A stretch of DNA of 12,074 nucleotides from a virus (IMGVR_UViG_2651869861_000010:1-12074); one strand, 5' to 3'. Positions 1 through 11,544 are shown, counted from the stretch's first letter. Notes: a model not told the origin generated them from the letters alone. Numbers and translations: made by a program.

Positions 1-649
1 GCACCTTACCTGTCGCCACGCCGTTTACCGTAATTGTCATATCTTTCACACTAATGGTGGCTTTCGACGGATCGGCGGAAACCGCTCTGAACGTCTTGTC
101 TGTTGCACTTTCCGGCTCAAAAGAAACCGTCAGGGTGGTTGTTTTCCCTTTTGCCACCGTACCGGATGTCGGCGTCACCTTAATCGCACTGACCGGCGTA
201 ATTTTGCTGCGTTCTTCCGCTACAGAAGGTTTACCCACGTTAGTGACTTTCACCGTGCGGGTGATCACTTCTTTCGCCGTCACGGCCTTACCGATACTGC
301 TGACCCAGCCACGAAACACATCCACCGTGCCATTCGGAAAACGGATTTTATAGGCCCGGACATCGCCGCTTTCAAACCAGCCTATAAGCCCTTTCTGGCC
401 TTCCTCTCCCGGTTTCCAGGCCAGCGTAAAACTGGTATCACCTGCAGATTTCTGCCCCTGCCCGGTCGCGGTCCAGTCCGCGTCTTCATCATCCAGGTAG
501 TTATCATCGTAGGATTCTGCCGTCATCTCGCCCGGCGTCAGATCCTTCACCTTAGCCAGTCGCTGCCAGTCATCGTCTGACAACGGGTTTGCATAGGCGT
601 CACCCTGACCGTTATAAACCCACAGGGTGGTACCGGCTCCTTTTACCGG
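1..649 (-). pseudogene. V: Major tail protein V remnant. Homology starts at about V residue 9 ([10 protein letters not shown]...), there is no in-frame start codon, and the 3' end runs off the window at position 1.
   Basis: My own translation of the minus strand from about 649 downward gives [142 protein letters not shown]..., near-colinear with lambda gpV as I remember it. An in-frame TGA lies just upstream (about 704-706) and no ATG follows it. This frame is absent from the ORF track because it has no start. Confidence 0.8.
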
Positions 650-909
650 CTCCAGGGGAATTCGTGTTTCGGCTTGACGTAGCCCGGACGTAACACGCGG
701 GTTTCACCACCGCGATGACGCAGCACTTTTCCTTCAACAACCGGGGAGACATAGGCCGCCACCGGCGTTTTTCCGGTAATTTTGTCCAGCATCACCTCTT
801 CGGTATGGAAATTCACCGTACGGCGGAAAAACAGCTCCAGAAACAGCGCACGAAATTTCACTTTTTGTTCGGTATAACCGAGTAACTGGCGGGTCGTAAA
901 CAATCCCAT
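643..909 (-). pseudogene. E: Major capsid protein E, N-terminal fragment only (88 codons, then stop).
   Basis: The track ORF MGLFTTRQLLGYTEQKVKFRALFLELFFRR...PGYVKPKHE matches the lambda gpE N-terminus (MSMYTTAQLLAANEQKFKF...PGYVKPKHE) as remembered. After KHE the reading frame diverges and stops (FPWSR*). Lambda gpE is about 341 aa, so roughly 250 codons are missing. Confidence 0.85.
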
Positions 910-937
910 AAATCAGTTCCTTTCATTCAGAAATCAG

Positions 938-959
938 TCAGGCCACCGCGGTGGCCTGA
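938..959. repeat. 22-bp perfect palindrome TCAGGCCACCGCGGTGGCCTGA in the D-E' intergenic space.
   Basis: Read directly: the sequence equals its own reverse complement. It sits 8 nt downstream of the D stop and about 30 nt upstream of the E' ATG on the minus strand. Confidence 0.9.
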
Positions 960-966
960 TAACGTG

Positions 967-1314
967 TTACGGCAGCGCCGCGTGACTCAGGGCACTGCCG
1001 GCAAAGGCATTTGCCTTTTTGTGTTCATCCACACTTTCAGGCCAGCGGATTGCCTCCGTCGCAAAGGTCCCCGACTTGTAATAGGTCAGTACCGTCTCTG
1101 TGCCTTCAAGCGGCAGTACCAGTATGCCAACTGCACTACCGGCTTTCTGTCCGTCCCAGACCACCAGTTTCCCGCTGGCTTCATCCAGCATCAGGGGCGT
1201 CAGTGCCGGTGTTGCCGAGGAAATCCCGCTGCTGCCTGTGGCGGTATGAGCCGGATCATTACCGGCAAAAATACGTACTTCCGCACGCTGTTCAGTGATG
1301 TTTTTCGTTACCAT
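967..1314 (-). CDS. D: Head decoration protein D.
   Basis: The 115-aa ORF carries motifs I recognise from lambda gpD (DPAHTATG, TPLMLD, KSGTFA, AFAG). Its position between C and E is as in lambda. Confidence 0.9.
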   Translation of the reverse strand: MVTKNITEQRAEVRIFAGNDPAHTATGSSGISSATPALTPLMLDEASGKLVVWDGQKAGSAVGILVLPLEGTETVLTYYKSGTFATEAIRWPESVDEHKKANAFAGSALSHAALP

Positions 1315-1350
1315 ATTGTAAAAACCTCCTGTTGATGGTCAGCACTGACT

Positions 1351-2856
1351 TCATGGCATGGCCATGAGCATTTTCACGTCCGCATCACCGTCTGCTGACG
1401 TCTGTGGCACGCCACCCTGTACCGCAGCCGGTGAATGGTTCGCCATGATGCGTTCAAACAGGGCGGTTGTGGATGCAGAGACCGGTTCTGCCTTACCTGA
1501 TCCCGCAGCCAGCACAGCCCGGGCGCTCTCCACAGTCATTCCCGGGCAGGCAGCCAGCTGTTCAGCCTGCGCCTCAGCCCCTTTTGCCTCATCCAGTGCC
1601 ATGATCTGATCACGGAGTGAGGGTCCGGCATCCGCCTGCGGTGAAGCAGCCAGGATCGGGCGGGCTTTTTCCACCGTCATCTCCGGCATCGCCGCCAGCG
1701 TTGCCGCCAGTTGTTCACGACCGTTCGCTTCTTCACACGCCATAATGCGATCGGCTTCACTCTGCGTGGATGCCACCGGCTGCTGCGGTGCCGCCGCGGC
1801 CAGAATCGCCCGGGCCTGTTCAACGCTCATGCCCTGTTGTCCTGCCAGCATCGTGGCAAGCTGTTCACGTCCTTTCGCTTCCTGGCATGTCAGGATCCCC
1901 ATCACTCGCTGGTTCTCCTGCGCGGCGGCTTCCGTTGCAGTTAATTGCGGCATAGTGCCTCCTCTGACATTACTGTTCAGCGCCGTGGCCATCACACTGA
2001 TGGCATCCGACGCATTGACTAATTCATCCGCCAGCCCGGCATCAATGCCGGACTGACCTTCAAAAACGGCGGCCTCTGTTCCCGTGACGGCATCAACAGA
2101 CAGACCGGTAAACATGGCCACTTTTTCGGCAAACATCCGGCGCGCCGCATCAATGCGCTGCTGCATGTTCTGGCGAACCTCTGCCGGTAAGGCTTCAAAC
2201 TGATTGCCATCCACCTTGTGCGCCCCTGAGTAAATCAGCGTGATATCCACACCGGCCTGCGCCAGATGACCGGCATAGCTGACATGGCTCATCATCACGC
2301 CAATGGAGCCGATACGGGATGTCTGGGTAACCAGCCGTCGGGAGCAGGCCGACGCCAGCAGCATGGCTGCAGAACAGGCCGTGTCATTGCACAGTGCCCA
2401 GACCGGCTTCTGCTGACGGAGGCGGTAAATCATGTCAGCGCAGTCAAACGCGCCGGCGGCCTGCCCGCCCGGACTGTCAATGTCCAGCAGTACGCCCCGC
2501 ACCTGGCTATCCGCCATTGCCTGCTGAAGACAGGCGACAATGCCGTCATAGCCTGTCATTCCGGAAAATGGCCGCATACCCCCCAGCCGGTGCACCAGCG
2601 TGCCGGTCACCGGCAGTACAGCAATACCGTTCACCACCCGGTAAACACGGGCCGGTCGTTTACCTCCGGCCATGTACTCGTCCGTTTCAGCCAGCATTCC
2701 GGGAGCATCAAGCTGTACCTGCTGCTGTGGTACCGAAAGACTTGCTGCCCCCATCTCGCGCCCGAGCGCGCAAAAGAAAACCCGCGCATAGGCGGGCTCC
2801 AGAAGCAGCGGTTCATTGAATGCTGCGGCAATAATGTGTGAAAGATTACGTCTCAC
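1351..2856 (-). CDS. C: Capsid assembly protease C (S49/ClpP-like fold) with a C-terminal Nu3-like scaffold domain.
   Basis: The 501-aa ORF has an N-terminal 300 residues colinear with lambda gpC as remembered (AFNEPLLLEPAYARVFFCAL, VLPVTGTL, SGMTGY, DSPGG, PVWALCND, GSIGVMM, LIYSGAHKVDGN, GLADELVN). The C-terminal part contains three tandem repeats of the motif lambda carries once (RIMGIL-CEEA-GRE...PGMTV-ARRILAAAP). Confidence 0.9.
   Translation of the reverse strand: MRRNLSHIIAAAFNEPLLLEPAYARVFFCALGREMGAASLSVPQQQVQLDAPGMLAETDEYMAGGKRPARVYRVVNGIAVLPVTGTLVHRLGGMRPFSGMTGYDGIVACLQQAMADSQVRGVLLDIDSPGGQAAGAFDCADMIYRLRQQKPVWALCNDTACSAAMLLASACSRRLVTQTSRIGSIGVMMSHVSYAGHLAQAGVDITLIYSGAHKVDGNQFEALPAEVRQNMQQRIDAARRMFAEKVAMFTGLSVDAVTGTEAAVFEGQSGIDAGLADELVNASDAISVMATALNSNVRGGTMPQLTATEAAAQENQRVMGILTCQEAKGREQLATMLAGQQGMSVEQARAILAAAAPQQPVASTQSEADRIMACEEANGREQLAATLAAMPEMTVEKARPILAASPQADAGPSLRDQIMALDEAKGAEAQAEQLAACPGMTVESARAVLAAGSGKAEPVSASTTALFERIMANHSPAAVQGGVPQTSADGDADVKMLMAMP
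1498..1917. repeat. Three tandem, imperfect repeats of about 135 bp (about 45 codons) inside the 3' part of C.
   Basis: Protein repeats at about aa 314-356, 367-405 and 414-453: RVMGILTCQEAKGREQLATMLAGQQGMSVEQARAILAAAAP / RIMACEEANGREQLAATLAAMPEMTVEKARPILAASP / QIMALDEAKGAEAQAEQLAACPGMTVESARAVLAAGS. The corresponding DNA repeat (cagCTGTTCAcg...cgcttc...gccat) is visible at about 1556, 1711 and 1858. Confidence 0.8.
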
Positions 2857-4438
2857 GGGGTGTTGTCTCCTCTTCCGGCCTGCGACTCTCCGCTATCTGC
2901 TGCTGATACGCCTGCGCTATCCACACCGGACGTGAGAGTCCGGCTTTTTGCCGCTCTGCAGATTCCCTGACCTGCTGGCGGAAAATGTCCTGATAATCCT
3001 CGCCCATCAGCGCCGGCTCTTTCTCATACGTGCTCAGTCCGGCCTCAATGCGCATCACCGATTCCTGAACCTCCTTGAGCCCGTCAATGGCCATTCTTCC
3101 GGCACCAATCCACTCTGCCCGTGACCAGGCTGATCGCGCCTGATAAAAATCAAAACGCGCCCGTGGCGGACGGATAATCCCCCGAAGAAGTGCCTCTTCC
3201 AGCCAGTAGGAAAACATCTGCGTGGCCAGCCGGGCCGCAATAAATTTTCGCCGCCCCATAAAATAGCGCCACGACTCATTGGCAGAGGCCCTGGCACTTG
3301 AATAACTGACCTTCGAGTAATCACGGGACAACTGTTCGTAGGAAACGCCAAGACCGGCGGCGATATACCGCAGCAGCGCCTGTTCAAGCGCCGAAAATCC
3401 ATTGTCTGAATCCTGCGCAGTCTGTAGTTTCAGATCATCCCCGGGGAAAAGGTGCGGAATTTTGACACCACCCAGCGTCACGTTATTCGTGTCATACCAG
3501 CTGGAGAACTTCTCCAGAATATTAATAAGCGGATTATCCTTCTGCCCCTGCGGCGCACCGGCGATATATTCAAAGGCCTTTTCGGTATCAAGGTCACTTT
3601 CAATCGTCGCTGCATACATGGCTTTCACAATGGCCGACTGAAGCTGTGTTGCCTGCAGGGAATCGAGCATCTTCAGCCGTTCCATGACGCTGTAAAACTG
3701 GTTGGCCCCACGGGTCTGCCCGTCCTCCACCGGCTCGAAAATATGCAGCATGGCCGGACGCCCGGTGGGAAGTTCACGCGGGATCCGTTCCCATCGTCCA
3801 CTCCCGGAGCGAGGAAAATCATCCTCACAGATATGGTACGCAACGGCACGGCCATATCGATCGACCTCCACCCCGGCCCGCAGAAAACGGTTCCCCATAC
3901 CGTGTCCTGGCGTGTCCACCCGTTTCGGACTCACGGCTTTAAAACGCGTACGGAATAACTGCGTGGTTTCCGTATCCCAGACCGGCTGCACAAAGATTTC
4001 GCCGTTAAACGCATGAACGCCCACACCTTCACGGATAAATTCCGTGAACGTGCGTTTTCCTTCCACGTCGATCTCGCCAGACATCCCTTCGGCGTATTCC
4101 GACCAGGCCGCCTCCACCTCATCGACAAAGCTTTTTGCTGCGGTCTCCCGCATCCCCAGCCAGCGCCAGTTCGGACGGTAGCTGATAAGAAACATATGCC
4201 CGACAATGTGATCCTTATGCAGTGCCACCGCATTGGCCGCTATTCCGTTATTGCGCACCAGATCATCTGCCCGGGCATTCCCCAGACGCAACGCGGGCAG
4301 CAGGGCCGCATCGGCACTCTGCGCCGGTGGCAACCACTCCGCCATTTGCCCGCCAAATCCTGCACCGCCCCCGTTGTAGCTGAGACTCTCACGAAGCGGA
4401 ACGCCGTTCACATCAATCAGGACAGGCGTTCGTTTCAT
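2846..4438 (-). CDS. B: Portal protein B.
   Basis: The 530-aa ORF is colinear with lambda gpB (NGIAANAV, FEPVEDGQTRGAN, LQSAIVKAMYAATIES, LLRYIAAGLGVSYEQLSR, IDGLKEVQE, EAGLSTYEKE). Its start overlaps the W stop (ATGA) and its 3' end overlaps the C start by 11 nt. Confidence 0.92.
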   Translation of the reverse strand: MKRTPVLIDVNGVPLRESLSYNGGGAGFGGQMAEWLPPAQSADAALLPALRLGNARADDLVRNNGIAANAVALHKDHIVGHMFLISYRPNWRWLGMRETAAKSFVDEVEAAWSEYAEGMSGEIDVEGKRTFTEFIREGVGVHAFNGEIFVQPVWDTETTQLFRTRFKAVSPKRVDTPGHGMGNRFLRAGVEVDRYGRAVAYHICEDDFPRSGSGRWERIPRELPTGRPAMLHIFEPVEDGQTRGANQFYSVMERLKMLDSLQATQLQSAIVKAMYAATIESDLDTEKAFEYIAGAPQGQKDNPLINILEKFSSWYDTNNVTLGGVKIPHLFPGDDLKLQTAQDSDNGFSALEQALLRYIAAGLGVSYEQLSRDYSKVSYSSARASANESWRYFMGRRKFIAARLATQMFSYWLEEALLRGIIRPPRARFDFYQARSAWSRAEWIGAGRMAIDGLKEVQESVMRIEAGLSTYEKEPALMGEDYQDIFRQQVRESAERQKAGLSRPVWIAQAYQQQIAESRRPEEETTPRET

Positions 4439-4641
4439 AACCTCACTCCCAGCGGACGACGGCGACGCCGGGTTGTCCCCAGTACCGACTCCGCATCATT
4501 GATCGCCCGGTTAAGCTCATCCAGAGAAGCCGCCGTATATTCAATTCTGCGACCATCTTTCTGGACAGACACCACCCGTTTACCGGTTAATAAATCAAGG
4601 CGCGCCTGACGCAGCGCCTGCAGTTCAGCGACTGTAACCAT
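4435..4641 (-). CDS. W: Head-tail joining / head completion protein W.
   Basis: The 68-aa ORF matches the length and core of lambda gpW (LTGKRVVSVQKDGRRIEYTAASL, TTRRRRRP). It overlaps the 3' end of A by 17 nt. Confidence 0.9.
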   Translation of the reverse strand: MVTVAELQALRQARLDLLTGKRVVSVQKDGRRIEYTAASLDELNRAINDAESVLGTTRRRRRPLGVRL

Positions 4642-6553
4642 TCACTCCTCCGGACAGCTTCGCTGCCAGTTCTTTCAGGGTTGGCCGGGTCGTCTCTTCT
4701 TCCCGGGATTTTGCCAGTACAGCCAGATCAAGCTGCCAGCGTTGCACGGACACACGTAATGCCGCGTAGGCATACACCAGGCAGTCCAGCGCTTCGTTAC
4801 GCCGCTTTTTGTTATCCCACAGCAGACGCATCTTTCCTTTTTCCCACTTCTCCACCAGCTCTTCCGCCACCAGTTGCTGCGCCTCTGTCTGCGAAAAAAT
4901 CTCCGGATCATCAGGAAAACGGATGGCATACGACGTGGCTTCATCCGCAGGCGAGGGATCGGCTTTCATACGGGCATAGAGAATTTCTTTTGCGGTGTCC
5001 GTTCCCACTTCACACAGATACACGCCCCGCTGATTGCGGGTTTTTGGCATGGTGATCACCGGCTTGCCATAGACAGATGCGCCTTTTACCGGCAGCACCC
5101 GGAAAACACCGTGTTTTTTTGATCTCTGATAAACAATTTCACCATCGATCCCCCCGGTGTCCCAGCAGACACGGGAAATAGTCATTTCGGTGCCATCCGC
5201 ATGGCGGTATTTTTTGTTGATCGCCGCATCCACACGTAACAGCGTCTCTTCCTCATCAGGACGCCCCATAATGATGATTTTATCCACCAGAAAGGCTTCC
5301 TCTCCCGGAGCCCATCCCCAGACATACATCTCAAAACGGTTTCGCTGCGAGTCAATGCCCGCCGTCAGATAAACCACCCGGGCAGGCACCGCCGCCGTGT
5401 AACGCACCACCTTATCCATCAGTACCTGGTGATCGAGTTTTTCGCCCACGGCCTCTTCCCAGGTCTCGCCCAGCGTGGTGTTCACAAAGGTTTTCAGGCC
5501 GTTGGGATCTTTCAGTGCATCCAGCCAGTCATAGACAATCTGTACCCAGGTGGTGAACGGACTGTACGCCGTCCAGATATGGAACATGATGGAGCGCGGC
5601 GGCGGAATTTCATCACCCCGGGCGCTGAAAAACGTCAGACCGTCACGGGTCCACATGCCCGTGTTTTCACAGATCCACCGCCCGTTGCTCTGGTCCAGTT
5701 CAGACTGATGGATCACGCAGCCATGATGTTCACAGAGGTAGAAAACACTTTCAGGGCTGTCCTTCTCCCATTTAAGCCCAAAAGGCGTGGACTCATCGCC
5801 AAATTTCAGATACTGCGCCTCCCCACAGTGCGGGCAGGGCACATAAAAACGCATAAAATGCGCCGACTCGTTAGCGGCTTTTTCGATCTGGCAGGTGCCT
5901 TTGATTTTAGGCGTCGAGCCGCGAATGGATTTTGGCCACACCGACCCCTCAATACGCTTATCCCCCAGCAGGGTTGGCGAGCCCTCTTTTTCGACATCCG
6001 GCTCGAACGAGGAAAGTTCGTCATAGCAGACCACGTCAACGGATTTTTCACGGTAGTTTTTGGCGGCAGCGCCGCCCAGGCACCAGAAACCGACGCCCGA
6101 TGAAAAGCGTTTCAGCGTGAGAGTATTGTCACGATGTTTACGACCCAGCCATGGGGAAAGGTCTTTCAGGCATGGCACGTTCCGAATCGTCGCCTCCACG
6201 TGAGACTTCATAAAATCTTCAGCGGCAGAATCCGTGGGCTGAAAAAGCAGACTGTTTCGGGATTTATGCTCAATAAAATACCCGCCCCCCCCCAGCAACA
6301 TCTTTGTATAGCCAACACGGGCAGATTTAATCAGATTAACAGTGCGGATCTGATCATTCCCCATACTGTTCATGATGGCGATCTGGAATGGCAGCGTTTT
6401 CCATTCGCCCTCACCATATGAAGATTCTTTAGGCAGATAATAATTTTGATCAGCCCATTCAACTGGCGTCACCGGCAATGCCCTTATCAGGGGCTGTAAT
6501 GCAGTTGTGACAGCGCTCATCATATTATTCAGTTGTTGCTCTGATATATTCAT
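4625..6553 (-). CDS. A: Terminase large subunit A. The likely start is the internal ATG giving MNISEQQ..., not the extended ORF start at 6610.
   Basis: Colinear with lambda gpA along its whole length (EWADQNYYLPKESSYGEGEWKT, FWCLGGAAAKNYREKSVD, GSPTLLGDKRIEGSVWPKSIRGSTPK, HFMRFYVPCPHCGE, TAYSPFTTWVQIV, ICWDTGGID, KKRRNEALDC). The lambda protein begins MNIS...; the 19 upstream codons in the track ORF overlap Nu1. Confidence 0.93.
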   Translation of the reverse strand: MNISEQQLNNMMSAVTTALQPLIRALPVTPVEWADQNYYLPKESSYGEGEWKTLPFQIAIMNSMGNDQIRTVNLIKSARVGYTKMLLGGGGYFIEHKSRNSLLFQPTDSAAEDFMKSHVEATIRNVPCLKDLSPWLGRKHRDNTLTLKRFSSGVGFWCLGGAAAKNYREKSVDVVCYDELSSFEPDVEKEGSPTLLGDKRIEGSVWPKSIRGSTPKIKGTCQIEKAANESAHFMRFYVPCPHCGEAQYLKFGDESTPFGLKWEKDSPESVFYLCEHHGCVIHQSELDQSNGRWICENTGMWTRDGLTFFSARGDEIPPPRSIMFHIWTAYSPFTTWVQIVYDWLDALKDPNGLKTFVNTTLGETWEEAVGEKLDHQVLMDKVVRYTAAVPARVVYLTAGIDSQRNRFEMYVWGWAPGEEAFLVDKIIIMGRPDEEETLLRVDAAINKKYRHADGTEMTISRVCWDTGGIDGEIVYQRSKKHGVFRVLPVKGASVYGKPVITMPKTRNQRGVYLCEVGTDTAKEILYARMKADPSPADEATSYAIRFPDDPEIFSQTEAQQLVAEELVEKWEKGKMRLLWDNKKRRNEALDCLVYAYAALRVSVQRWQLDLAVLAKSREEETTRPTLKELAAKLSGGVNGYSR

Positions 6554-7034
6554 CAAGTAAATCCGGTAATTTATCCCCTGCCCGCGCACACTGATTTGCC
6601 CCCTTAGCAATAAGGGTTTTCAGATGGTCAAGATGGCGCGGTGTTAAATCAGGAAACTGTCGCTGCATGGATAAAGGGATGGAATCAAGCGTACTGGATA
6701 ACGCCATTGCCAGCTTACTGAGGGCAAAAATACAGAACCCGGTGTCAATCAGTTTTCCTTTTGACACCTCATTTTTTAACTGCTGTGTAACAGCCTGTTC
6801 TGCTGTCAGTTCCCATCTGGCAATAAGCAATTTCTCCTCATAGTCGTCTTCGCTATCGCCATCAGGCACATCGTTTTTACTTCTCCTCAGATACGATATG
6901 TAAAAATCGCGCCAGGCATCCAGATCCAGTTGCCCTCGCTTATTCGATATCGGGGCACCCGGCAATTTCTGCAATCTGCGAAGCTGGCGATCGGTCAGAC
7001 TTAAATGCCTGGCAACTTCAGTCTGCGTAGCCAC
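6525..7034 (-). CDS. Nu1: Terminase small subunit, Nu1-like. The C-terminal half is lambda-like, the N-terminal helix-turn-helix DNA-binding domain is divergent, and the start codon is GTG.
   Basis: The C-terminal half (TGFCIFALSKLAMALSSTLDSIPLSMQRQFPDLTPRHLDHLK...LPDLLDEYI) resembles lambda gpNu1 (TAFCTFVLSRIAGEIASILDGLPLSVQRRFPELENRHVDFLK...IPGLLSEYI). The N-terminus (MATQTEVARHLSLTDRQLRRLQKL) is an HTH unlike lambda's. The start reads GTG on the minus strand (cac at 7032-7034) with GAGGTGAGGA just upstream. It overlaps A by 29 nt, as in lambda. Confidence 0.8.
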   Translation of the reverse strand: MATQTEVARHLSLTDRQLRRLQKLPGAPISNKRGQLDLDAWRDFYISYLRRSKNDVPDGDSEDDYEEKLLIARWELTAEQAVTQQLKNEVSKGKLIDTGFCIFALSKLAMALSSTLDSIPLSMQRQFPDLTPRHLDHLKTLIAKGANQCARAGDKLPDLLDEYIRATTE

Positions 7035-7074
7035 TCCTCACCTCGCAAAAACTCTCACCTCACAATCACAACAA

Positions 7075-7180
7075 AACCGGTCATGTCCGGTTTACATGTC
7101 TGTTTTTTGTTCATGTCCGGTTCACAGAAGACCTGTTTTTATATTTTTCATATAGTTAACTTGAAGAGAAACCGGACATG
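7075..7180. repeat. cosB-like array: three copies of the 11-mer CATGTCCGGTT (7082-7092 and 7112-7122 direct; 7170-7180 inverted), with an AT-rich spacer that is a possible IHF bend site.
   Basis: Read directly. The first copy is part of a near-palindrome AACCGGTCATGTCCGGTT (7075-7092). The array sits between cosN and the Nu1 start, where lambda has its R3-I1-R2-R1 small-terminase binding sites. Confidence 0.55.
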
Positions 7181-7217
7181 GATCCCGGAAAATTTTCATA
7201 AATAGCGAAAACCCGCG

Positions 7218-9768: not shown

Positions 9769-10241
9769 ACCTCACTCTCTCTGACCGTTCCGCCAGCTTC
9801 TTTGAATTTTGCAATCAGGCTGTCAGCCTTATGCTCGAACTGACCATAACCAGCGCCCGGCAGTGAAGCCCAGATATTACTGCAACGGTCGATTGCCTGA
9901 CGGATATCACCGCGATCAATCATAGGTAAAGCACCACGCTCTTTAATCTGCTGCAATGCCACTGCGTCCTGGCTTTTGGGGGAGAAGTCTTTCAAACCAA
10001 GCTGTTTACGGTAAGCATCCCACCAGCGTGAAAGAAGCTGATAACGTCCGGCGGCTGTTGATTTGAGTTTGGGGTGTAGCGTGACAAGTTTGCGAGGGTG
10101 ATCGGAGTAATCAGTAAACAGTTCGCCGCCAACAATAACATCATAACCGTGGTTACGTGTCGGTTGTCGCCCGTTATCCGTTCCTTCTGACCACGCCAAC
10201 ATATCGAGGAAGGCTTTACGCTGAGGATTAAGATTTTGCAT
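9765..10241 (-). CDS. R: Endolysin R (lambda-type lytic transglycosylase).
   Basis: The 158-aa ORF ([49 protein letters not shown]...[21 protein letters not shown]) is nearly identical to lambda R. Its start lies 14 nt inside the holin 3' end. Confidence 0.95.
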
Positions 10242-10545
10242 TTTTCACCCCTGTCAGTCGTTCCCAGAAGTACGTCAGTGCAACCGAACCCATCGCACCA
10301 CTAATCCCCGCTGTCGCGAGAATCATGTAAATACTGAATCCACTTTCGATGCTGATCAGGCCACCAATAACACCGGTGAATCCTGATACCACTATTTGAG
10401 CCAGAGCATTTATCCAACTCCACGTTGCTTTACTCTGCTTCACATCTATCAGGTAGCGGACCAGACCGCCCCAACCTGCGATGATCAGCAAAACGAGCCA
10501 GAACGCTCCGGCAAGGCTCTCTTTTTCGTGCATATGAATAGCCAA
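10228..10545 (-). CDS. Class I holin with three predicted transmembrane segments, not lambda S-like. The first codon of the ORF is TTG and the first ATG is codon 5 (10531-10533).
   Basis: Three hydrophobic stretches (LAGAFWLVLLIIAGWGGLV; WINALAQIVVSGFTGVIGGLI; FSIYMILATAGISGAMGSVAL) are followed by a charged C-terminal tail, and the gene sits immediately upstream of R. The minus strand reads TTG GCT ATT CAT ATG CAC... The sequence is unrelated to lambda S. Confidence 0.8.
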   Translation of the reverse strand: MAIHMHEKESLAGAFWLVLLIIAGWGGLVRYLIDVKQSKATWSWINALAQIVVSGFTGVIGGLISIESGFSIYMILATAGISGAMGSVALTYFWERLTGVKNAKS

Positions 10546-10647
10546 TGTTTCGCCGCCGACAAAAGGCCGGGACGTTAAATGTCAGAAATCAGGCTCACGG
10601 GGTAATTTAACGACAAAGCACGGAGTTGATGCTCCCCACAAGCCTGG

Positions 10648-10673
10648 AATAAAAAAGCCAGCATGTAGCTGGC
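10648..10673 (-). terminator. tR'-like intrinsic terminator on the minus strand.
   Basis: Stem GCCAGC (10657-10662), loop ATGTA, stem GCTGGC (10668-10673). On the minus strand the hairpin is followed by TTTTTTATT (complement of 10648-10656). It lies about 185 nt downstream of the candidate PR'. Confidence 0.6.
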
Positions 10674-10842
10674 AACAGAGGGCTAAGCAATATCAACTCA
10701 ACAGCTGAAGACCCCCTGGCTGGGGTAGGTTGGAAGGCTACTCACCGTTCAGAAACAGAAAAGCCCAAGGCTTTAAACCTCGGGCTTGAATTTGGATTAC
10801 TGCCAGTGCGTACAACATTGGCAAAATATCAGATTTACATAA

Positions 10843-10871
10843 AATATATGATTTTTAATCCAGTTTTGCAA
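10843..10871 (-). promoter_or_regulatory. Candidate late promoter PR': -35 TTGCAA (10866-10871), 17-bp spacer, -10 TATATT (10843-10848), overlapping the Q stop codon.
   Basis: Hexamers read directly on the minus strand. The position at the 3' end of Q, upstream of a terminator about 185 nt away, mirrors the lambda PR'-qut-6S RNA-tR' arrangement. Confidence 0.4.
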
Positions 10872-11544
10872 TATCTTGCTGTGAAAATGTGGTCTTTTGT
10901 TTTGAACGTGTTTTCGTTAAAAGCAATAAAGCTTGGCTATCAAGCTGTAGAAAAATGTGTTTCATTGCAACCCAGCGTTCAGTAAATGTCTCAGACCAGT
11001 TTTTTGATGTCACTCCCACCAGTGATGCCAGCTCCTGGTATTCATAGGTCTTACGCCCTGCCAGCTCGTTCTTCACATCCTGTGCCGCCAGCCAGATCAA
11101 CTTCTTCAAACGTTCCAGTGTCTTACCTGCAATTTTCCTGGTACCCAACAGAGTCTTAAACTCGCTCCATGCCCACTGCGTTATGGTGACCTGATGTTCC
11201 CAGCGAACACTTTCGCTGTAACTCCACAGCAACCACGCTTTCTGATGTTCTTCGAGAGACAGAACCGCGCGGCGCCATGACGAGGTTGAGAACTCAACCT
11301 GGCTGACCAGTGCAATGGATGAACCTTTTGCGTACGACTGCTTACCGGAAATCGGCGGATTATCCAGCGTAATCATCCTGCCAGTTACCTCATCCAGAAT
11401 GCGCGGCTTCTTTCGTTTGTATGTACCAGTATCAAATTGTGCATGCTCCAGCCAGGCTTCAAGCTGTCCTTTCGTTGCTCCGCTCAAATCAGCGGTAGCC
11501 ACAATGAGTTGCTCGCGGACATACTGTAAATATTGGGTATTCAT
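10855..11544 (-). CDS. Putative late-gene antiterminator (Q-like by position), not lambda-Q type and cysteine-free.
   Basis: The 229-aa ORF lies directly between rusA/ylcG and the PR'/tR'/holin region, the canonical Q position. It has no similarity to lambda Q as remembered, and it has no Cys residues, so no zinc finger. The family assignment is not verified. Confidence 0.5.
   Translation of the reverse strand: MNTQYLQYVREQLIVATADLSGATKGQLEAWLEHAQFDTGTYKRKKPRILDEVTGRMITLDNPPISGKQSYAKGSSIALVSQVEFSTSSWRRAVLSLEEHQKAWLLWSYSESVRWEHQVTITQWAWSEFKTLLGTRKIAGKTLERLKKLIWLAAQDVKNELAGRKTYEYQELASLVGVTSKNWSETFTERWVAMKHIFLQLDSQALLLLTKTRSKQKTTFSQQDIAKLD

Follow-up and report, generated by a model that had tools for sequence, protein, structure and literature searches.

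The gene analysed here is very probably a phage-21-type allele of the lambdoid protease/scaffold pair (genes 5/6 of phage 21, C/Nu3 of lambda), in which a tandem triplication of a small module in the scaffold part is old and fixed. The triplication as such is already known, having been on record for decades as the 'Tri boxes' of phage 21. What the present analysis adds is modest, namely a census of the module, a single-copy norm over about a thousand clusters, and indications of old age and protein-level selection. All coordinates are those of the window, by which we mean the whole 12,074-nt stretch of DNA that was analysed, counted from its first letter, and the features are collected in Table 1. 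The interval in which a triplication had originally been predicted, 1498-1917, corresponds to residues 314-453 of a 501-aa ORF on the minus strand.

Table 1. Features of the protease/scaffold gene and its neighbours in the 12,074-nt window
Feature	Position	Strand	Basis and remarks
Portal gene, upstream neighbour	2846..4438	-	ORF; collinear with phage 21 gene 4 / portal
gp5-type head protease/scaffold CDS (lambda gpC analogue)	1351..2856	-	ORF call; 501 aa, GTG start
S49 (SppA/ClpP-fold) peptidase domain, aa 146-293	1978..2421	-	Pfam PF01343
Strong Shine-Dalgarno GAGGAGG	1958..1964	-	Read from sequence; 4 nt upstream of internal ATG
Nested in-frame gp6/Nu3-like scaffolding gene	1351..1953	-	200 aa; ATG at 1953 = Met302 of gp5
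Module R1, aa 313-364	1765-1920	-	
R1 core, aa 313-358	1783..1920	-	HMM domain E = 7e-23
Phage 21 'Tri1 box'	1783-1886	-	Ungapped-alignment transfer from M81255.1; within R1
Module R2, aa 365-411	1624-1764	-	
R2 core, aa 366-408	1633..1761	-	HMM domain E = 3e-25
Phage 21 'Tri box' (second)	1636-1746	-	Ungapped-alignment transfer; within R2
Module R3, aa 412-463	1468-1623	-	
R3 core, aa 413-454	1495..1620	-	HMM domain E = 3e-22
Phage 21 'Tri3 box'	1492-1605	-	Ungapped-alignment transfer; overlaps R3
C-terminal tail, aa 464-501 (F-x-R/x-F/I-M ... acidic ... LMxMP)	1354..1467	-	Alignment; single copy
CII-site pattern matches	1701-1714, 1935-1948		Transferred from phage 21
Head decoration gene (shp / gpD analogue), downstream neighbour	967..1314	-	ORF; collinear with phage 21 shp
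Truncated major capsid gene	643..909	-	Only the first ~85-94 codons remain; fused to a tail-protein gene at about 650-659

A profile search matched the full-length protein to phrog_53 'head maturation protease' (E = 1e-227). The S49 domain was recognised by its Pfam model with E = 2.8e-35 (122 bits against a cut-off of 24.9) and also matched the SppA crystal structures 3rst and 4kwb (E ~1e-16), while its CSA (Ser162) and HKVDGN (Lys214) motifs aligned with Ser166 and Lys218 of lambda; going by the lambda gpC and SppA literature, Ser162 and Lys214 are presumably the catalytic pair. The nested 200-aa protein was matched by phrog_8399 'head scaffolding protein' (Nu3-type) in three separate stretches. 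An internal RBS is annotated at the same place in both phage 21 records (M81255.1 and OL657228.1), and from this annotation and the RBS in the window we infer that the internal start at Met302 is used for a gp6-like scaffold. The genes around the pair, all on the minus strand, run in the order terminase, W-like, portal, protease/scaffold, decoration and capsid (truncated), and the neighbourhood is a lambdoid head operon. Thus the S49 domain, the nested start with its RBS, the operon position, the module and the C-terminal tail that mark the phage 21 gp5/gp6 - lambda C/Nu3 pair were all found. The antisense ORFs that cross the repeat on the plus strand (1358-1609, 1711-1944 and 1745-2056) were put down to the GC-rich composition of the gene.

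In phage records, tblastn recovered phage 21 together with about 20 relatives, all matching over the full length with 90-98% identity. Phage 21 gp5 has the same length (501 aa) and is 98.0% identical to the window protein, the two differing at 10/501 positions, one of which lies inside a module core (A373V in R2), and the 200-aa product of phage 21 gene 6, 'head-tail preconnector gp6 / scaffolding protein', is 97.5% identical to that of the window. The phage 21 DNA aligned with window 4953..659, from the terminase to the start of the capsid gene, at 98% identity and with no gap, an alignment that takes in phage 21 genes 2 to 7. In M81255.1 ('Bacteriophage 21 head gene operon') the annotated features include gene 5, gene 6 nested in it together with an RBS, and, in gene 6, three repeat_regions called 'Tri1 box', 'Tri box' and 'Tri3 box' that carry the note 'function unknown; putative'; when transferred to the window these three boxes coincided with the three modules R1-R3, and it is because of this GenBank feature table that we describe the triplication as known before. 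The newer complete phage 21 genome, OL657228.1, names the two products 'capsid protease/scaffolding protein' and 'scaffolding protein'. We take the source of the Tri-box annotation to be Smith & Feiss (1993, Gene 126:1-7). A search of the open-access literature on phage 21 head genes, Tri boxes and gpC/Nu3 domains returned nothing relevant except an interaction map of lambda.

At the protein level, the predicted three tandem copies in the scaffold part of a gpC-type protease were confirmed. Residues 313-463 comprise three diverged copies of ~45 aa, which are 44-60% identical to one another and whose pairwise BLOSUM62 local scores of 87-101 compare with a mean of ~26 for composition-preserving shuffles (n = 2000; z = 11-15). 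The module consensus was D-R-I-M-A-x-x-E-A-K-G-R-E-x-L-A-x-x-L-A-x-x-P-G-M-T-V-E-x-A-x-x-L-L-A-A-A-P, with R3 carrying KGAE in place of the KGRE found in most modules, and conservation was strongest in the E-A-K-G-R-E segment between helices 1 and 2 and at the hydrophobic positions of helices 2 and 3. The linkers between modules are Pro/Ala/Gln-rich. The conserved C-terminal tail that follows, and that is also present after the single module of lambda, contains a fourth 'RIM' in the peptide ERIMANH (aa 468-474), but the tail had no significant likeness to the modules in the shuffle test (z below 0). A 44-position profile built from 20 modules was used for all copy counts given below.

The original prediction had also claimed a matching DNA repeat of about 135-150 bp, which holds only weakly. 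The period is 141-159 nt, and DNA local alignments between copies gave ~70% identity over 60-100 nt (z = 4-12), with 52-64% identity when alignment was guided by codons. Considered as a recent, minisatellite-like DNA array the repeat failed, since Tandem Repeats Finder (TRF) gave no row across it, even at a score of at least 30, and the longest exact run common to two copies was 8-9 nt. Identity between copies was 58-81% at codon positions 1 and 2 and 36-38% at position 3, and this conservation of positions 1 and 2 with position 3 near background argues for selection on the protein and makes a DNA or RNA role unlikely.

The original prediction gave lambda one copy, which is correct, and the peptide quoted for it was also right (gpC aa 357-399). 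Using the profile, in which lambda was not included, exactly one module was found in lambda gpC (NC_001416) at aa 357-401 (E = 1e-20). Lambda has the same gene order as the window (W, B, C/Nu3, D, E), and has in common with it the S49 domain (about 54% identity over aa 3-346), the module type and the C-terminal tail. It differs in that its single module follows a ~48-aa low-complexity linker, whereas the three of the window begin 11 residues after the internal start, and in that its scaffold, counted from Met309, has 131 aa (RefSeq annotates 201 aa) as against 200 aa in the window. In Salmonella, Gifsy-1 STM2605 and related prophage gpC homologues have three modules in the same order and the same tail, although the scaffold part of Gifsy-1 is only about 53% identical to that of the window and its R3 keeps the KGRE that is KGAE in the phage 21 lineage. 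Three modules were also found in several more distant E. coli and Salmonella lineages (45-64% identical). One E. coli lineage (P0027 / locus L006) has the architecture of the window with four copies, next to genes for a decoration protein, a Phage_cap_E capsid protein and FI; its last three modules (copies 2-4) are 81-86% identical to each other and form a clear DNA tandem array with a 138-nt period and a TRF score of 529.

Counting copies across homologues, as had been proposed, thus gave one in lambda, three in phage 21, the window and Gifsy-1, and four in one E. coli lineage. The original prediction had treated three copies as unusual unless close relatives had the same number; phage 21 (98% identical) and Gifsy-1 also have three, and by that measure the triplication is ordinary. 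A search of 1.84 billion representative proteins with the module profile returned 1039 clusters (50% identity) at E<=1e-3. Among 144 new top hits, some of them fragments, one copy was found in 130/144, two in 10/144 and three in 4/144, and certain two-copy forms from distant lineages clearly arose by independent duplication. In complete E. coli genomes, the lambda-type one-copy segment was present in 3222/5426 (59%), the phage-21-type three-copy segment of 603 nt in 1870/5426 (34%) and the four-copy segment in 106/5426 (about 2%). Three copies are therefore normal for one of two common head-module alleles, given the 1870 genomes and the match to phage 21, and we regard the triplication as ordinary because it is annotated in phage 21, because it is ancient and stable, and because roughly one in three E. 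coli genomes carries it.

When other lineages of E. coli and Salmonella are compared, each module of the window has its closest counterpart in the same position, with identities across lineages of 76-93% for R1-R1, 77-86% for R2-R2 and 60-69% for R3-R3. This positional orthology indicates that the triplication predates the divergence of the E. coli and Salmonella prophage lineages, and sequence comparison thus suggests that it is old and fixed in the phage 21 / Gifsy-1 lineage and has been selected as protein, not as DNA. It had been proposed, however, that the repeats are recombination-prone and may vary between strains, and the array could accordingly be read as a recent, unstable tandem duplication whose copy number changes by unequal crossing-over. 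Variant alleles do exist. A homologue search with the 200-aa scaffold, in which nearly all proteins recovered were partial or fragments, so that it shows variants and not frequencies, returned a clean one-module deletion with an R1/R2 hybrid junction and 150 nt lost (P0020), a two-copy form (P0021) and partial deletions of R2 (P0009, P0011 and P0016). Strain UTAK-4 carries a perfect 45-nt duplication inside R3. The separate four-copy lineage, with its TRF-detectable 138-nt array and copies 2-4 at 81-86% identity, also points in this direction.

Against unequal crossing-over in the window allele, most of the variants came from short or fragmentary draft contigs with 1-4 members. Coverage was >=80% in 1864/1870 of the E. 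coli genomes carrying the segment, and 28/30 of a spread sample of the hits were exactly 603 nt in one piece. Positional orthology, moreover, holds even where the lineages of E. coli and Salmonella have no more than 45-60% identity. With exact runs between copies of at most 9 nt, the array offers little for homologous recombination to act on, and the low identity at codon position 3 (36-38%), the exact runs of 8-9 nt and the blank TRF result together lead us to consider it not notably recombination-prone. Strain variation by recombination is hence poorly supported for the window allele, and a recent unstable duplication is improbable. Deletion and duplication alleles look rare, and the idea of a recombination-prone array would appear, from the sequences, to fit the four-copy lineage better.

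Structure prediction of the module, which had likewise been suggested, gave three short helices per module with AlphaFold2. The scaffold models are of moderate confidence only, the 200-aa scaffold reaching a mean pLDDT of 64 from the single sequence and of 67 (pTM 0.27) from a 21-sequence alignment, with module helices at pLDDT 72-81 and linkers and tail at low confidence. The pTM of 0.27 suggests that there is no fixed packing between modules, which would thus resemble beads on a string and not one packed domain. Among solved structures the module had no match by sequence profile or by fold, and a Foldseek search of the PDB with the AlphaFold2 model had no hit with E below 2; in BFVD the only matches were local ones, to this module in other S49 proteins of phages. 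The module is not covered by any model in Pfam or NCBIfam. PDB chain 9hqv_Un ('LAKGREALAEK', E = 0.35) was considered as a scaffold fragment and rejected as a chance match, the entry being an apicomplexan mitoribosome. The C-terminus of P22 gp8 is a helix-turn-helix coat-binding domain and is likewise a small C-terminal helical unit on flexible segments. This is analogy only, as P22-gp8-like scaffold coat-binding domains showed no sequence or structure match to the module, and membership of that group is not claimed.

The second half of the module (L-A-A-x-P-G-M-T-V-E-x-A-R-x-L-L) resembles the pattern of helix-hairpin-helix (HhH) nucleic-acid-binding repeats, and were the modules of this type, the scaffold or the protease tail would contact DNA. 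Pfam HHH (PF00633) gave E = 0.002 to 0.09 on R3, and there were weak profile matches to NusA C-terminal HhH domains at E about 0.5. However, the best Pfam score (18.3 bits) was below the gathering score of 24 and was obtained on R3 alone, R1 and R2 giving nothing with this model. In addition, the structure search returned no significant match, the modules have an acidic to neutral character and are not basic, and scaffolds do their work before DNA enters the head, making a nucleic-acid-binding role highly improbable.

The Tri boxes could instead be repeated cis-acting DNA or RNA sites, for a regulator or for packaging, with the protein repeat being secondary. They are annotated in M81255.1 as DNA repeat_regions of unknown function, and OL657228.1 marks two matches to the CII-site pattern (TTGYN6TTGY) in gene 6, one of them inside the second box. 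In contrast, conservation falls mainly on the first two codon positions, identity at position 3 being close to background, and at the protein level the module has been retained in 1039 distant clusters; the CII matches, furthermore, are pattern-only annotations, two in all and not one per box. A cis-acting role is thus barely credible. Finally, chance similarity in an alanine-rich, low-complexity tail, which might be entertained from the abundance of Ala, Gln and Glu in the region and the non-significant resemblance of the C-terminal 'ERIMA', is already refuted, since 0/2000 composition-preserving shuffles reached the module scores (z = 11-15) and the profile that recovers the module from lambda also recovers it from hundreds of unrelated clusters.

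On the preferred reading, that of a phage-21-type allele of the lambdoid protease/scaffold pair, one reading frame would give both a full-length S49 serine protease with a scaffold tail and, from the internal ATG and its RBS, the scaffold tail alone. Homology suggests that each module is a protein-protein contact unit, serving in self-association of the scaffold and/or in capsid or portal binding, and that the scaffold would become multivalent by carrying three such units on flexible linkers. The protease and the scaffold have the module in common, and we therefore propose that both are taken into the procapsid together, where the protease domain would remove the scaffold after shell assembly. 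The reported partners of lambda Nu3 are portal B, protease C, Nu3 itself and capsid protein E (PMC3224144).

It is tempting to suppose that copy number sets scaffold valency, co-adapts with the capsid or portal allele and adds to the incompatibility of lambdoid head genes, although we regard this as a doubtful extension of the preferred reading. Lambda builds the same kind of T=7 shell from a homologous capsid protein with one module copy, and the capsid genes found with the one-, three- and four-copy alleles are all homologous Phage_cap_E genes. Since lambda assembles with one copy and the four-copy lineage adjoins a Phage_cap_E capsid gene, copy number may be nearly neutral. If the proposal is true, the module, a widespread building block of scaffolds (at least 1039 clusters), would tune valency through its one-, three- and four-copy forms and the independent two-copy forms. 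With their one, three and four copies, the natural alleles form a series already available for relating scaffold valency to procapsid assembly.

Unlike that of phage 21, the gene of the window lies in a prophage with a truncated capsid gene. A tblastn search with phage 21 gp7 covered only aa 1-94, the homology ending after about residue 94, and window 3-649 continues in a tail-protein gene. Compared with an intact prophage, about 2.56 kb are missing at the capsid/tail junction, comprising most of the capsid gene, FI, the head-tail joining genes, two tail genes and the start of the major tail gene. The truncation of the adjoining capsid gene makes the function of the protease/scaffold gene at this locus doubtful, and unless it works in trans, or recombination with other prophages rescues it, the gene of the window is probably a relic. 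An identical junction (100% identity) occurs in about 300 genomes, among which O157:H7 strains head the list, and RefSeq annotates the capsid gene in O157:H7 as an incomplete pseudogene; the prophage is a defective, phage-21-like E. coli prophage of the O157:H7 type.

In a representative protein library, the scaffold module was also found in distant proteins carrying two copies, both as S49-scaffold fusions and as stand-alone small scaffolds. In each of five of them (P0197, P0103, P0226, P0100 and P0162) the two copies were most similar to each other, and the module has thus been duplicated independently several times. Within E. coli, a four-module version of the gene was found in a separate lineage, with the four-copy allele present in 104-106 of the 5426 complete genomes. 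Copies 2-4 of its product were 81-86% identical to one another, and across these same copies Tandem Repeats Finder detected a 138-nt tandem array (score 529). The four-copy array looks like either a younger expansion or the outcome of concerted evolution.

Features of the window and of related loci
Feature	Location	Details
Truncated major capsid gene fused to tail-protein gene	window 1-960, junction ~650-659	~85-94 codons left
TTGCN6TTGT and TTGCN6TTGC	window 1701-1714 and 1935-1948	+ strand; pattern match
Four-module version of the gene, separate E. coli lineage	L006 410-918	GCA_032727965.1 contig, protein P0027
Perfect 45-nt tandem duplication within R3	L003 1896-1994	E. coli UTAK-4, NZ_CP157156.1
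Deletion allele of phage-21-type gene, P0020	L009 503-955	
Deletion allele of phage-21-type gene, P0011	L008 94-639	
Deletion alleles of phage-21-type gene, P0021, P0016, P0009		

Alleles of the phage-21-type gene itself also differed in length. In UTAK-4 the unit ACPGMTVESARAVLA is present twice within the third module, R3, giving a product of 516 aa; this duplication was seen in a single genome only, where it arose either very recently or through an assembly error. Deletion alleles, most of them from short draft contigs, included one clean loss of a single module (150 nt) via an R1/R2 hybrid and several in which R2 was partly lost, for example by 57 nt. R3 of the phage 21 lineage carries K-G-A-E-A-Q in place of the nearly invariant K-G-R-E-x-L (gp5 aa 424-427, window ~1576-1587), whereas R3 of Gifsy-1 retains K-G-R-E. 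The third copy may be functionally relaxed or specialised.

The nested-start annotations of lambda nu3 and phage 21 gene 6 are not equivalent. In RefSeq, nu3 (201 aa) begins within the protease domain of gpC, at Met239 (L007 833-1438; NC_001416 5132-5737), while the gene 6 start aligns to lambda Met309 (GGRM-TKETQ), from which a scaffold of 131 aa would result. Both CII pattern matches in the window correspond to 'CII binding site' features within phage 21 gene 6 (OL657228.1), annotated from pattern only, and are probably due to chance.

The prophage of the window is defective. Compared with the intact relative L005, it lacks ~2.56 kb comprising head-completion and tail genes. The identical capsid/tail junction occurs in ~300 complete E. 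coli genomes, among which O157:H7 strains are listed first; in O157:H7 strains RefSeq annotates a capsid pseudogene. At a coverage of ≥80%, no complete E. coli genome contained a single locus matching the full window. L005, the best-matching prophage, left positions 6472-7188 and 9769-11539 uncovered, and the late-gene region is thus mosaic. The portal ORF of the window (2846..4438, 530 aa) is intact; in O157:H7 PV15-279 (L010 4807-5241) the portal gene is flagged as frameshifted by RefSeq and adjoins a scaffold segment identical to that of the window.
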